Shown: positions 49,801 to 55,800, numbered from the stretch's first letter. The stretch: 64,000 nt of DNA from Escherichia coli (GCF_041248615.1 NZ_CP158426.1), one strand, 5' to 3'. Program-made: the numbers.

Positions 49801-52800
49801 GCCGCTGAACGACGGTGTGCTGACCTTCCCGTTCTTCACCATTGAGAACGTGGATGTGGTTGACACTAACCACATCATCGTAGGCAACGATAATAACTTC
49901 CCGTTTTCCTCCAGCCGCTGGCCTAATATGGCGGATGACAACGAGTTTATTCTACTGGATGTGAAGGATTTTCTGAAGTAGGGGGAAGAGCATCTTACGA
50001 TACTCCTCGCTAATTTAAAAACGAACGGTGCTGAGCACCGTTTTTAATCACCTCGCCAGAACCTACCAGAATATGATGTTGGTTTATTATCACTGATTCA
50101 TGGGGAGCACCCAGCGCTTCGGCGGTTTTTTATGTCTTTAAAGCAGTAGCGGTAGGGTCGCGCTGGCTGTTTTCTGGCTCACCTCGCTGTACTGGTCATC
50201 CAGCGCAATCAGCGATGTGGTGAGTAGCTCTACCAACAGCATCACTCCCACTTTGGCAGTCAGCGCGCCGGCACTCAAGGGTCCTTCCGGTTTGGCCGCG
50301 ACCAGTTGAATATCACTCAGCGAAGCTAACGGACTGCGCGGTGTATTACTCAGCGCCAGTACACGCACACCTTGCTTACGCGCTAGTTTTACGACATGCA
50401 GCAGATCGCGCGTGGATCCAGAACTGGAAATCGCCACCACGAACGTGTTTTTACTAAGTGTTGTGGCGTTCATGGCAGCACGATGCATATCGCTGAACAA
50501 TTGTGCGGGTTTCCCCAGACGCAGGAGTTTATAATGTAAATACTCCCCCAGAATGGCACTGGCTGCTACGCCATAAATCTGCACTGACTGAGCCTGATGC
50601 AGTGCAAGCGCGGCTGCTTCCAGCAAGGTTCTGTCGAGTAATTTTGCTGTGTCCTGTATTGCTTGCACGGATTCATTGACCACATTGTCAATCTCATCAC
50701 CGCCGTGCTCTACAAACTGTACTTGTCGGAGATCGAGTGCCAGCGCCATTTTGAATTCGTTATAGCCCTTACACCCAAGCGTTCGGCACAGACGTGTGAC
50801 GCTAGCCTCGCTGGTGCCGCTTTCACGCGCAAGTTCGGTAATCGTCAGGTAGACAACTTTTGCCGGATCGCTAAGTACAAACTCTCCCAGCTTCTGTTGT
50901 GTTCGGCTATATCCATCAACGCTCTGGCGCAATCTCAGCAGCAGGTTTTCATTTTCTGACATGTAAAATCCTTAATGCGTTTATCTGTTGATAGTGTGAC
51001 GGAAAGGAGGGGATTGATGCCAGACATTTTAAAAAAGTATGATCGACTTCTTAGATTTTGATGGTGATTTTTATTTATAAGAATAATTATAGTAAAAATT
51101 TTCATCAAAAATCGAGGAGATGATAAAATGATGCAAATGTTTAGCGGCGCTTCATCGGGGGGATGGTTTGAAAAAGCGCAGCGGTTCGGAAAATCCTTCA
51201 TGCTGCCGATTGCGGTATTGCCCGCAGCAGGGCTGTTATTAGGGATTGGTGGCGCGTTGTCAAATCCAAACACGTTGACGGCTTATCCGTTTTTAGATGC
51301 CGACTGGTTGCAGGCAATATTCACAATCATGACCAGCGCAGGTTCTATTGTGTTTGCCAACCTGTCGGTACTCTTTGCAGTCGGCGTCGCCGTGGGGCTG
51401 GCGAAATCGGATAAAGGCACTGCCGGGCTTGCGTCATTGCTGGCGTTTCTGGTGATGAATGCCACCATCAACGCCTTATTAACGCTCAACGGAACGCTGG
51501 CGCACAAGAACCCCGCTTCAGTTGGCCAGGGGATGACGCTTGGTATTCAGACACTGGAAACTGGTGTGTTTGGTGGGGTGGTGATTGGTCTCGTCACCTG
51601 CACTTTACATAGCCGTTTCAATAAAGTCTCACTACCTCAGTTTCTCGGTTTTTTTAGTGGTTCTCGTTTTGTACCCATTATCAGCTCCCTTGCCGCGATA
51701 GTAGTGGGTGCGGTTATGACGGTGGTGTGGCCGCATTTCCAGAAACTCATTTTTGGACTGGGCGACCTGGTGGATGCGACGGGCTATCTGGGGACGCTGT
51801 TGTACGGCTTCATCCTGCGTATGCTCGGTCCACTGGGTTTACACCATATCTTTTATTTGCCGTTCTGGACGACGGCGCTGGGCGGCAGTGAAATCGTCAA
51901 CGGCCAGTTGGTTGAAGGTACGCAGCGGATTTTCTTTGCCCAACTTGCCGATCCGAATACGCAGCAGTTCTACGCGGGTACCGCTCGCTTTATGTCCGGG
52001 CGCTTTATCACCATGATGTTTGGCCTGCTTGGCGCATGTCTGGCAATGTACCATACTGCAAAGCCGGAGAATAGAAAGGTTGTCGCCGGACTACTTTTGT
52101 CGGCAGCCCTGACCTCTTTCCTGACGGGAATCACTGAGCCTGTTGAGTTCTCCTTCCTGTTTGTCGCGCCCGTATTATACGTAATTCACGCCTTCTTCGA
52201 TGGTCTGGCGTTTATGGTCGCCCATATTTTACATATCACTATTGGGCAAACCTTTTCGGGCGGGCTTATCGATTTCCTTCTCTTCGGCGTGTTGCAGGGG
52301 GAAGCTAAAACAAACTGGATGTATGTCCCCATAGTGGGAATACCGTGGTTCTTCCTTTACTACTTTACTTTCCGCTATTTGATTAACCGCTTTGGCTGGC
52401 TGACGCCGGGGCGTGAGAACGTAACCCAGGTTGAATCCGGCCAGCCTCAGAGTGAACGCGCAGCGGCAGTCATTGCCGGGCTGGGAGGCAAAGAGAATCT
52501 GGAAGAGGTGGACTGTTGCGCCACGCGCCTGCGCGTGACGGTTAAAGAGAGCAGTAAGGTAGATGAAGCTGCGCTGAAAGTGGCCGGAGCGCGTGGCGTG
52601 ATTATTCGCGGCAACGGCGTTCAGGTGATTTATGGCCCTCATGTCACCATCATTAAAAACGAAGTCGAAGAGATTTTATCGTAATGAAAACTGTACTGGA
52701 TTCCCTGAAAGGTAAATTAATCGTCTCCTGTCAGGCTCTGGAAAATGAGCCTCTACATAGTCCGTTTATTATGTCACGTATGGCGCTGGCGGCAGCACAA

Positions 52801-55800
52801 GGTGGTGCTGCAGGTATCCGTGCCAACAGCGTGGCGGATATTAGTGCTATCAAAGAGATTGTCTCCCTTCCGATGATAGGGATTATCAAACGCGATTACC
52901 CTGGCAGTGAGGTGTTTATCACGGCCACTCTCCGGGAAGTGGATGAGCTGATGACCGTTGAGCCGGAAATTATTGCCCTGGATGCTACTGCGCGCCCGCG
53001 CCCTGGTGGTCAGACGCTGGAAGAACTGGTCACGCAGATCCGCGCTCGCTACCCGTCCATACTTCTGATGGCAGATATAGCAACAGTAGAAGAGGCAGTG
53101 ACAGCTGAACGTCTGGGTTTTGACTGTGTGGGCACTACGCTCTACGGCTATACCGCAGAAACTGCCAGGCATGTGCTGGCGGAAAATGACTGTGGATTCT
53201 TACGTGAGGTCCTGAAAGCGGTCAGCGTTCCGGTCGTGGCGGAAGGGAATGTCGACACCCCGGAGTGCGCCGCACGTTGCCTGACATTAGGCGCTCATAC
53301 CGTGGTGGTTGGGGGGGCAATCACTCGTCCGCAGCAGATAACGACACGCTTTATTGCAGCGATCGCCTCGTAAAGCACCGATGAGGCATGATATTTTGCT
53401 GGGAATAAGCGATAATTATCGCTTATTCCATATTGAGAGTGCTATGCAGTTCCCGATTAGCTCGGCAGGGGCTAAATCATGGTTATCCGGTCATGCTGCG
53501 CATGGATAATCGCTCGGAATTTAACACTCTCGCGCTGACACTGGCTGAATGGGCATAGATACTCGCAGTAAAACGAGAGCTCAGCCAGCCTGGTCGAGTT
53601 ACCCCTGATAGAGGAATACTGATCCTACCCCATGTAATGTGGACACAAGCCTAAGTGATGTTCTGGTTTTCAAATTGTTCCGTACTGAGACCACCACACC
53701 AGCTGTGCCCTAACAGGCACAGTTTCAGCACTCCTAAGCAACCGTAAAATGGCACCAGTTTCACAAGCAATTGTGCTCATTATTATTGCTATAACAAAAA
53801 CCTTTTTTTCTGATGAATGAATTATTAATATAATTCTGATCAAACACCTGTTTTTTTAACCTACAGAAGGAGTTATTATGAAAAAATACTCTTCTCCCGT
53901 CCTTGCACTCATTCTTGTTAGCAACAGTATGGTATCCTCCGCTGCCACAAAAGAAATCTCAAAAACAGCTTATGTCTGTAATGGAAATAAGACAATGGAG
54001 GTGGTCTATATCAACACCACTGCTGGGAACTCATATGCAGTGATTAATCAGATGGATGAGATGATACCTATGCAGCTAATGAAAATGGCCTCCGGAGCCA
54101 ATTACGAAGCCATCAATAAAAGATACTCATATAAACTGTACACAAAAGGTAAAAAAGCCAATCTGGTGGAAGGGAATGATAATCCTGTCTTAAGCAACTG
54201 TTCATCGGCCGAATGACAGCCAGAGCCTGTCAGTAATTCTGTGTAAATGCCTTTTCTTTAAAGTGACCGTCAGGACGGTCACTGATTACCCATTCTGAAT
54301 TCAGTGCAGAATTAAAACATGTGTGCAAAATAATTTAATTCAGACAGCTTTTTATTTCACTATGGCTATCCCAGAACAACCAGTACAAATAATAAAAGAC
54401 ATATCACAGCAACACTCCACACTGACAGCGCAAAAATAAATGCCGCCTTTGTTATCTTCATATACAAGCAACCTGTCCTGATAATCACCAACTCATGTTT
54501 TATTCTTAACCATTCGTCACAAATACAACAAAAAATAACAGCAGCAGCACCGATATCACAATATAAGATACATTATTCAACACCTGAATCCCCCGCCGCT
54601 TCTCTCCCCTTTATAAAACGCCCCTTCCGGAATCCAGACCGCTGCAGTGCACGACGAAGATGACCGTATACCGTCTTGTCATTCTGCCCCGTCTCTTCTG
54701 TAATCTCCGCAATACTTAAACCTCTGTAATACCGGTTCAGTACCGCTCTGCGCTCTTCCAGCGTCAACACACCTCCGGCCGCTCTCAGATTCAGCATCGA
54801 CTTATTCAGAATACAGCAGGCCTCTCCGGTAAAAAGAATACGAACAATATCTGTATACTCATCATCACAGAATACAAAATAATATCTGAATGACCTGCCT
54901 GACTGCACCCTTCTTCTGTCTGATATGGCATCTTCTATATATCTGATTCGACTGCTTACGGTTCCAAATATCTCTCGCAGGGCTTTTTCAAAATAAATAT
55001 CTCTCGTCGCCAGGATTATATCCAGCATCTCTGTACCTCATTATATCCCGGGGGACTCCCCCCGGGACAGATATCTAAATCCTGACCTGTCAGAACTCAA
55101 AATTCACACCAGCATTCCACGATGCGGATGACCCACCTGCAGCAACTGCAACTTTTCCTGCCACATTCTCTGTGAAACGGTAGCCCACGCCCACCGCAAT
55201 GGCCTGCTCATCACGGTAACCACCAACGGCTGCTGTCGCGTTAAATTTTCCAACACTGTATGGCTGGAAAAGACCTGCCAGTGCCGCGCTCTGGGCTGCA
55301 CTCTCCCTTAACTCCTTCCGGTTCTCTTTAATCTGCTCCTGCATATTATTCATTCTCTCTGTCGCCATCTTCTGCCAGGCTTCCGTCAAATCCAGACGAT
55401 GACTGTTATTCCTTATCGCTGCTGTATTTGAGGCTATTGCTGCATCCGTCTGCGCCCTGTTCTTCACAAGCACATCGCTGAGATGTTCTGCCTGGCTTTT
55501 CGCTTCTTTACGGGCATCCCGTACACTTTTATCTGTATAAGCCCGGGAAACCTGAACTGTTTCATCCGCTTTTTCTTTTATTTCATCCTGAAGAGCAAGA
55601 GAAGATGCATCCGTATACGCCACCGCTGCCGATGTGCCTGCAATAATATCCCTGCTGAGTTCAGCATGAACTGTTGAAAGACGTTTATCTGTCTCGTCAA
55701 TTCTTTCATTCGTCTGCAACAAAAAGACCTGTGCATCATCAAATCGTTCATTCAGTTGCCCTACCGTCGCTGCATCTGTGTTATTGATACCATCAGACAC

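Follow-up and report, generated by a model that had tools for sequence, protein, structure and literature searches.

A perfect 28-bp palindrome follows directly on a small set of genes for amino-sugar uptake in a 64,000-nt stretch of Escherichia coli DNA (NZ_CP158426.1; called the window here, read on one strand, with coordinates counted from its first letter). Here we describe the relation of this palindrome to the promoter of queE, the gene that follows the same gene set in related genomes, and we discuss what the inverted repeat may do. The genes and the palindrome had been described before in a first-pass annotation, and all element positions given there were confirmed by open reading frame (ORF) calls, family searches and a palindrome search. 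The features of the locus are the following:

50124-53462: transferred unit, consisting of regulator, phosphotransferase system (PTS) gene, nanE, queE promoter and queE stub (limits from homology)
50138-50962, minus strand: RpiR/NanR-type regulator (ORF call), divergent from the PTS gene
51128-52684, plus strand: PTS EIICB of the glucose family, 518 amino acids, without EIIA domain
52684-53373, plus strand: NanE-type N-acetylmannosamine-6-phosphate (ManNAc-6-P) 2-epimerase, 229 amino acids
53388-53416, plus strand: fossil queE core promoter, with -35 ATGATA (53388-53393), 17-nt spacer and -10 GATAAT (53411-53416) (promoter scan)
53402-53429: perfect palindrome (14+14) GGAATAAGCGATAATTATCGCTTATTCC (sequence search)
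53435-53461, plus strand: queE ribosome-binding site GAGAG (53435-53439) and first six queE codons (53444-53461) (alignment to the queE starts of AH04, Citrobacter and K-12)
53444-53509, plus strand: chimeric 21-codon ORF MQFPISSAGAKSWLSGHAAHG starting with the queE stub, in the same frame as a 53354-53509 ORF
53481-53594, plus strand: remnant of an IS3-family transposase (82-84% matches to IS3 transposase and integrase-core genes)

The three genes fit together well. The regulator carries the Pfam domains HTH_6 (68 bits) and SIS, which is phosphosugar binding (69 bits), and its nearest solved structure, matched over the full length at E 1.4e-68, is 4ivn, the Vibrio vulnificus NanR with bound ManNAc-6-P (PMC9177960). 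The EIICB protein matches PTS_EIIC (298 bits) and PTS_EIIB (56 bits) in Pfam, has the phosphorylatable cysteine motif of EIIB (CCATRLR) in its translation, and scores 587 bits against the glucose-family IIBC equivalog TIGR02002, slightly below the cut-off of 591.8. The epimerase scores 316 bits against NF002231 (cut-off 189), also matches Pfam NanE, and is nearest in structure to the NanE entries 1y0e and 6vva (E 1e-78). These family and structure matches uphold the earlier description of a compact amino-sugar uptake module, and the translational overlap that had been reported between permease and epimerase amounts to 1 nt, shared in TAATG by the EIICB stop codon and the ATG of nanE. RefSeq labels the products as a MurR/RpiR regulator, a maltose/glucose-specific PTS IIC and a ManNAc-6-P 2-epimerase. 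Based on the linkage with NanE and the homology of the regulator to NanR (4IVN), the predicted substrate of EIICB is most likely N-acetylmannosamine (ManNAc) or a related amino sugar. The sugar would enter through EIICB and arrive as ManNAc-6-P, which NanE would convert into N-acetylglucosamine-6-phosphate and the NanR-type regulator would sense; with no EIIA linked to the module, the general EIIA-Glc presumably serves EIICB. In Streptococcus pneumoniae, the glucose-family EIIBC SP1684, which also has no EIIA, adjoins the NanE protein SP1685 under a phosphosugar-binding regulator, as here, but that pair sits in a large nan regulon, unlike the unit in the window, and the phenotype scored for SP1684 was glucosamine, so that the substrate is uncertain (PMC3302838).

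The palindrome is the longest perfect one in the 64 kb, where the chance expectation for a perfect 28-mer is 64000 x 4^-14 = 2e-4 by hand arithmetic. It is single in the window even when 3 mismatches are allowed (0 matches in 100 shuffles), and no second copy was found in E. coli genomes at BLAST sensitivity. As RNA it gives a 12-bp stem with a 4-nt loop (-17.4 kcal/mol, z -5.3), which begins 28 nt past the stop codon of nanE and has 5 G-C pairs out of 12. The reported absence of a T-run behind it was borne out, as the next bases are ATATTGAGAG and the tail ATATTGAG contains 3 T in 8, with the threshold of the terminator scan set at at least 5 T in 8. The scan made no call at the palindrome, and neither the scan nor folding called any other hairpin between nanE and the next gene. 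A stem-loop shortly after the last stop codon of an operon is what Rho-independent terminators look like, but the stem here is AT rich, has no U-tract and was not called, and the proposal of a terminator-like hairpin does not hold in the sense of a canonical intrinsic terminator: the palindrome is not one. An Rfam scan of 49900-54000 at E<=1, for which the preQ1 riboswitch class was considered because queE is nearby, gave a single chance match, and no riboswitch or known small RNA.

The key to the palindrome is what stands directly behind it, which had been overlooked: GAGAG, four bases, and then ATG CAG TTC CCG ATT AGC (GAGAG-N4-ATGCAGTTCCCGATTAGC). This is the start of queE, with the stub peptide MQFPIS where K-12 has MQYPIN. 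E. coli AH04 and wlxctx60 carry these three genes at 87% nucleotide identity, directly upstream of an intact chromosomal queE, and the 72-nt gap before queE contains the homolog of the palindrome. The module is likewise followed by an intact queE, after about 72-80 nt, in Citrobacter, Enterobacter, Lelliottia, Leclercia and others. Homology of the window to the native AH04 locus (87%) runs from 50124 to 53459, and homology to ST131-type islands (96%) stops at 53462. The island copies hold queE remnants of different lengths: that of fS149a, in a tRNA-Phe island, has 264 nt, that of ST131 about 50 nt and that of the window about 18 nt. The remnant of the IS3-family transposase marks the point where queE is cut off here; the ST131-type islands have a YccS/YhfK pseudogene there instead.

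The region upstream of queE in K-12 is homologous as well (CATGAT-N17-AATAAT...ATTATCCAC...GAGA-ATGCAGTACCCGATTAAC) and aligns to the palindrome as CAGGATCTGCAATAATTAACAATTATCCAC, although K-12 has no module upstream of queE, only the divergent yqcG, and shows a vestigial inverted repeat and no hairpin. We collected queE upstream sequences from reference and E. coli genomes (39 distinct) and from a metagenome scan for the queE start (62). The pattern (A/T)TG..-17-TCTGCGATAAT is conserved before queE in more than 90 distinct sequences, K-12 included. It consists of a -35-like block (ATGATA, ATGACC or TTGGTC), a 17-nt spacer ending in TCTG, and GATAAT, where the TG together with GATAAT forms an extended -10 (TGnGATAAT), and these three blocks are conserved whatever lies further upstream. 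The window retains the sigma-70-type hexamers ATGATA-17-GATAAT (9 of 12 matches in the promoter scan), with the TG of the extended -10 changed to AG both here and in the ST131 allele. The queE promoter of K-12 is PhoP regulated, with phosphorylated PhoP binding within 300 bp upstream, and it was not mapped at base resolution (PMC4974570).

Because of the stub, the native loci, the shrinking remnants, the K-12 alignment and the conserved -35 and -10, we regard it as essentially shown, by comparison of sequences, that the palindrome is a segment of an orphaned queE core promoter (spacer and -10 to about +10) that entered the island along with the module. The island copy brought the queE core promoter, the Shine-Dalgarno (SD) sequence and the first six codons, the rest of queE being lost by an IS3-associated truncation. 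The chimeric ORF that begins with the stub retains the queE SD sequence and the fossil promoter and could be expressed as a micro-ORF; probably it is meaningless. In Enterobacter, Lelliottia and Leclercia (L013, L025, L027 and others), the NanE frame is six codons longer than in Citrobacter and E. coli, and its TGA stop falls within the queE -35 (CATGAC or CATGAT), so that the end of the gene overlaps the next promoter.

It had been asked whether the palindrome is conserved in homologous loci. Its homolog is conserved, but only as a quasi-palindrome and not in the perfect form. The native sequence is GGGGATCTGCGATAATTATCGTTTATCCCC, with the general form GGGGATCTGCGATA(A/C)TTA(T/A)CGTTTATCCCC, and could form 15 pairs, of which two are mismatched and one is G.T. 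The mismatched bases are the CT of TCTG, where the T is that of the extended -10 TG, and the T run in the conserved GTTTA, and in functional promoters these positions hardly vary, if at all. We take the mismatches of the native stem to be bases that the promoter requires. The island alleles can be put in order as follows:

fS149a allele: native-type sequence, quasi-palindrome, no change
ST131-type allele GGGGATAAGCGATAATTATCGCTTATCCCC: perfect over 30 bp; CT>AA and T>C fix exactly the three imperfect pairs
window or LS45-type allele GGAATAAGCGATAATTATCGCTTATTCC: perfect over 28 bp; from the ST131 type by G>A in the left arm, C>T at the base paired with it, and loss of one C
TUM9803 allele GGGAATAAGCGATAATTATCGCTTATTCCC: perfect over 30 bp; from the window type by A>C just outside the palindrome, which restores 30 bp

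A perfect palindrome was seen only in islands where queE is truncated. None of the changes broke the symmetry, which was either preserved or lengthened; each equals the complement of the opposite arm, and the island-specific ones fall on positions with almost no variation among functional promoters. A rough estimate gives p ~7e-5 for three random substitutions that all mend mismatches and ~1e-2 for the later compensated pair. The native RNA hairpins span -13 to -17 kcal/mol (AH04 -12.9, Citrobacter -15.5), and the corresponding values are -4.1 kcal/mol for K-12, -25.8 kcal/mol for the ST131 allele and -17.4 kcal/mol for the window allele. Truncation of queE would lift the constraint on the promoter, and the stem may then have become perfect because a better hairpin was selected for, because template-switch mutation acted on the quasi-palindrome, or for both reasons.

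What the inverted repeat does in the native loci is a separate question. We folded each distinct queE upstream sequence after anchoring it on the -10. The median hairpin energy was -12.8 kcal/mol when NanE ends directly upstream (n=36 distinct sequences) and -3.4 kcal/mol otherwise (n=49), and this association with NanE adjacency had a Mann-Whitney p of ~1e-12, uncorrected for phylogeny or physical linkage. In the native loci, a run of G over the promoter spacer makes up the left arm, whose pairing partner is ATCCCC in the queE leader. In two loci with no NanE upstream, which are taken to be Salmonella-like and whose QueE is 95-96% identical to that of K-12 (L172 and L190), the right arm ATTATCCCC is kept, the left side reads CGAAAT and there is no stem. 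Three taxa (L040, L043 and L051) have a GC-rich terminator of their own behind NanE, and these lack the stem as well. These results make it probable, in our judgment, that the inverted repeat is the 3' stem-loop of the module, a weak terminator, a 3'-end protector or an insulator that lies over the queE promoter and was perfected after the promoter constraint had been lost. Transcripts leaving nanE would fold into a hairpin exactly at the queE promoter, and this stem-loop, as a weak terminator with little of a U-tract or as a protector of the 3' end, would insulate queE from the sugar-induced operon. Such insulation makes sense because an excess of QueE blocks cell division, as seen from the filamentation of cells that overexpress queE (PMC4974570). 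We only tentatively extend this to a more specific proposal, which we rather doubt, that the native quasi-palindrome is a terminator or insulator embedded in the promoter, with its left arm in the spacer and extended -10, and that the perfect palindrome of extraintestinal pathogenic E. coli (ExPEC) islands is the same device optimized without the promoter constraint. The transcripts of PTS-nanE would then stop or be trimmed where queE transcription starts, uncoupling QueE from induction by amino sugars.

Several results weigh against a functional 3' stem-loop. The adjacency test ignores phylogeny and linkage, and the stem is inherited as the 3' flank of the module. There is no U-tract, the tail being AUAUUGAG in the window and UUUAC or UUAAC in Enterobacter, and the terminator scan was silent. 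Eight lineages in which the module adjoins queE have a weak stem or none (-3.8 to -9.7 kcal/mol) and no other obvious terminator (L015, L018, L022, L024, L030, L044, L055 and L073). A strict rule that a hairpin occurs wherever the module adjoins queE was thus rejected, and the hairpin is not indispensable. Covariation across genera is modest, with 66.9% of cells paired and 63.8% in shuffles. In two Enterobacter-like metagenome contigs (L201 and L203), the module was deleted naturally and about 25 nt of the NanE 3' end is left before the queE promoter; the full quasi-palindrome survives in L203 and has decayed in L201. Finally, the window allele forms a less stable stem than that of ST131, which suits mutation that keeps symmetry at least as well as selection for stability. 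Four of the lineages with weak stems (L030, L044, L055 and L073) have no GGGGAT..ATCCCC stem and carry a small GTTTA-N5-TAAAC hairpin just upstream of the queE SD sequence, which may be an alternative structure of the queE leader.

The main alternative is that the palindrome is a relic without function, an orphaned queE promoter made symmetrical by quasi-palindrome template-switch mutagenesis in unconstrained DNA. In a template switch, the nascent strand copies the opposite arm, so that an imperfect inverted repeat turns perfect. All five or six inferred changes could have been templated in this way, including the adjacent double change CT>AA, the compensated G>A and C>T, and the extending A>C, and the confinement of perfect versions to copies with a truncated queE points the same way. 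The loss of stability from the ST131 stem to the window stem would not be favored by selection for a stronger hairpin, and the retention of the stem in one module deletion and its decay in the other are as drift predicts. Hotspots where quasi-palindromes become palindromes are documented in E. coli; those of the thyA type are imperfect repeats made perfect by changes templated by the opposite arm, multi-base changes included, as here (PMC7202029). However, these hotspots were observed in laboratory reporters, whereas here the process is deduced from natural alleles, in which it is inseparable from selection. A relic also leaves unexplained that the native quasi-palindrome, particularly the G-run of its left arm, is found almost only with NanE directly upstream. 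Furthermore, CT>AA and T>C need opposite template directions and hence at least two separate events, and the perfect alleles probably have one origin, so that their restriction to truncated copies is effectively one observation. Overall, we consider it unlikely that the palindrome is nothing but a relic. On the route to perfection, a 3' stem-loop and template-switch mutagenesis are not mutually exclusive.

A protein-binding operator had also been proposed. The dyad would then be bound by a dimeric factor (the NanR-type regulator, Fur or another protein) that represses the native queE promoter, and the island copy would be an orphan site of high affinity. The perfect dyad covers the promoter from -10 to about +10, which is the classic position for a repressor, and GGGGAT..ATCCCC is conserved in the Citrobacter/Enterobacter clade. 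GATAAT/ATTATC also resembles the hexamers of a Fur box. On the other hand, the palindrome is single copy in the window and, at BLAST sensitivity, in E. coli genomes, queE promoters that have no module next to them have lost the dyad, which is unexpected for a queE-specific regulator, and the island changes destroy native positions that are nearly invariant. The module has a control region of its own, with these features:

50963-51127: divergent regulator/PTS control region, holding two conserved dyads
51059-51073: dyad O1 TGATGGTGATTTTTA, somewhat degenerate in the window
51090-51107: dyad O2 TAGTAAAAATTTTCATCA (control-region alignment)

In an alignment of 39 sequences of this region, TGATGATAATTTTCA and TGGTAAAAATTTTCATCA are nearly invariant from Citrobacter to Aeromonas, and the promoter scan gave promoter-like matches at 51014-51043 and 51058-51087. 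From this conservation, O1 and O2 are probably the operators of the RpiR regulator, although this assignment is putative. They have only a GATAATT-like AT-rich core in common with the palindrome, and we rejected the palindrome as an operator of the module's own regulator, as the dyads from the 39 loci are unlike it. A Fur box was rejected as well, with 11 of 19 consensus matches in K-12 by hand count and the wrong spacing in the perfect allele, and so was a PhoP box, as the palindrome has no convincing direct repeat and the K-12 sequence that precedes the -35 is missing from the island copy. Altogether, we consider an operator quite improbable. Even less credible, to the point of being negligible, is a mobile-element or recombination site of the IS3 remnant or the island (a terminal inverted repeat of an insertion sequence (IS), a REP-like or an XerCD/dif-like site): the palindrome lies about 50 nt from the remnant and can be parsed dif-like as 11-6-11, but its arms are unlike those of dif, the island-type homology runs 33 nt past it, and dif/XerCD sites, IS ends and REP elements were excluded by its base-for-base homology to the queE promoter of loci without a nearby IS and by its single-copy status.

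The nearest solved relative of the regulator, V. vulnificus NanR (4IVN), is an RpiR-type repressor that is released by ManNAc-6-P. It controls a complete sialic-acid (nan) cluster. In comparison, the module in the window has no linked lyase, kinase or sialic-acid transporter, as seen in the RefSeq annotation and in our tblastn locus table, and the likeness of the two regulators is one of overall homology. In Listeria monocytogenes, the lmo2795-nanE operon, with an RpiR regulator, PTS EIIA/EIIBC and NanE, is needed for growth on ManNAc; NanE is required for ManNAc catabolism and the regulator binds the promoter of its own operon, but the PTS is dispensable for growth on ManNAc (PMC10667646). 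Both loci combine NanE and a PTS permease with a regulator of the RpiR family. Listeria has the larger operon, with a ROK protein, a HAD hydrolase, an oxidoreductase and a separate EIIA, and the regulator there is a co-transcribed activator, whereas the unit in the window has three genes, a divergent regulator and no EIIA.

The module is found far beyond this strain. A scan for the NanE protein in one genome per species gave 80 loci, and the gene distribution was tabulated by tblastn. The order with a regulator divergent from PTS-NanE occurs in Citrobacter (88-94% identity in NanE), Enterobacter, Lelliottia, Leclercia, Yokenella, Pluralibacter, Pantoea, Erwinia and Aeromonas, and the three-gene arrangement is kept in about 40 genome loci from Citrobacter to Aeromonas. 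A pair of PTS (about 70% identity) and NanE (about 60% identity) is present in Bacillus, Paenibacillus and Clostridium; the module was also recorded across Enterobacteriaceae and in Vibrio and Firmicutes, and the EIICB gene is paired with NanE in all of the more than 50 related loci. In E. coli, at least 80% of the module stretch is present in 468 of 5,426 complete genomes (~9%), with ST131 at 96% identity, and it is 100% identical in many chromosomes of ExPEC and avian pathogenic E. coli (APEC), including BEN2908. We found no description of this module in E. coli in the literature; a 2026 paper on the BEN2908 genome treats another RpiR/PTS region, GR29 with tkt1. The three genes are an ordinary, widespread operon that is annotated yet uncharacterized in E. 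coli. The earlier consideration that EIICB and epimerase might match a known operon with nothing unusual was thus right in that a widespread and unremarkable operon is matched, but not in the sense of one already characterized in E. coli.

The module lies in a genomic island, and collinearity of the window with BEN2908 begins only at 43766. Just upstream of the module, at 48638-49981 on the plus strand, lies a gene for a phytase-like esterase family protein (PF13449) with a signal-peptide-like N terminus, which ends in a canonical opposite-strand terminator at 50024-50042. Further upstream, 22000-43000 matches the eip/eilA/iatC cluster, with type III secretion translocon-like genes, a HilA-family regulator and an inverse autotransporter. 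Downstream, the region 53878-64000 encodes an MliC-type lysozyme inhibitor (53878-54216), a sigma-factor-like helix-turn-helix protein and a YadA-like adhesin, followed by a split transketolase with an ascorbate-type PTS IIA/IIB/IIC set and a LacI regulator. This downstream region is a mosaic of sugar and adhesion modules split by IS debris. In search of a tRNA anchor for the island, ARAGORN was run on the whole window and found no tRNA.

The practical value of these findings is small, and the palindrome is better seen as a curiosity of evolution than as a new mechanism. The module itself is an uncharacterized, probably ManNAc-specific PTS route, found in ~9% of complete E. coli genomes, among them ST131 and APEC lineages, and the queE promoter and start codon that hitchhiked with it show that the ExPEC/APEC island module came from a queE-linked chromosomal locus of the Citrobacter/Escherichia type. 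If it is true that the native stem insulates queE, it would be a compact terminator and promoter that share bases, placed beside a gene whose dosage affects cell division. The island alleles form an ordered series, a natural record of how a quasi-palindrome becomes perfect and stays so after purifying selection on the overlapping promoter is lifted, and this bears on the origin of perfect inverted repeats in bacterial genomes.

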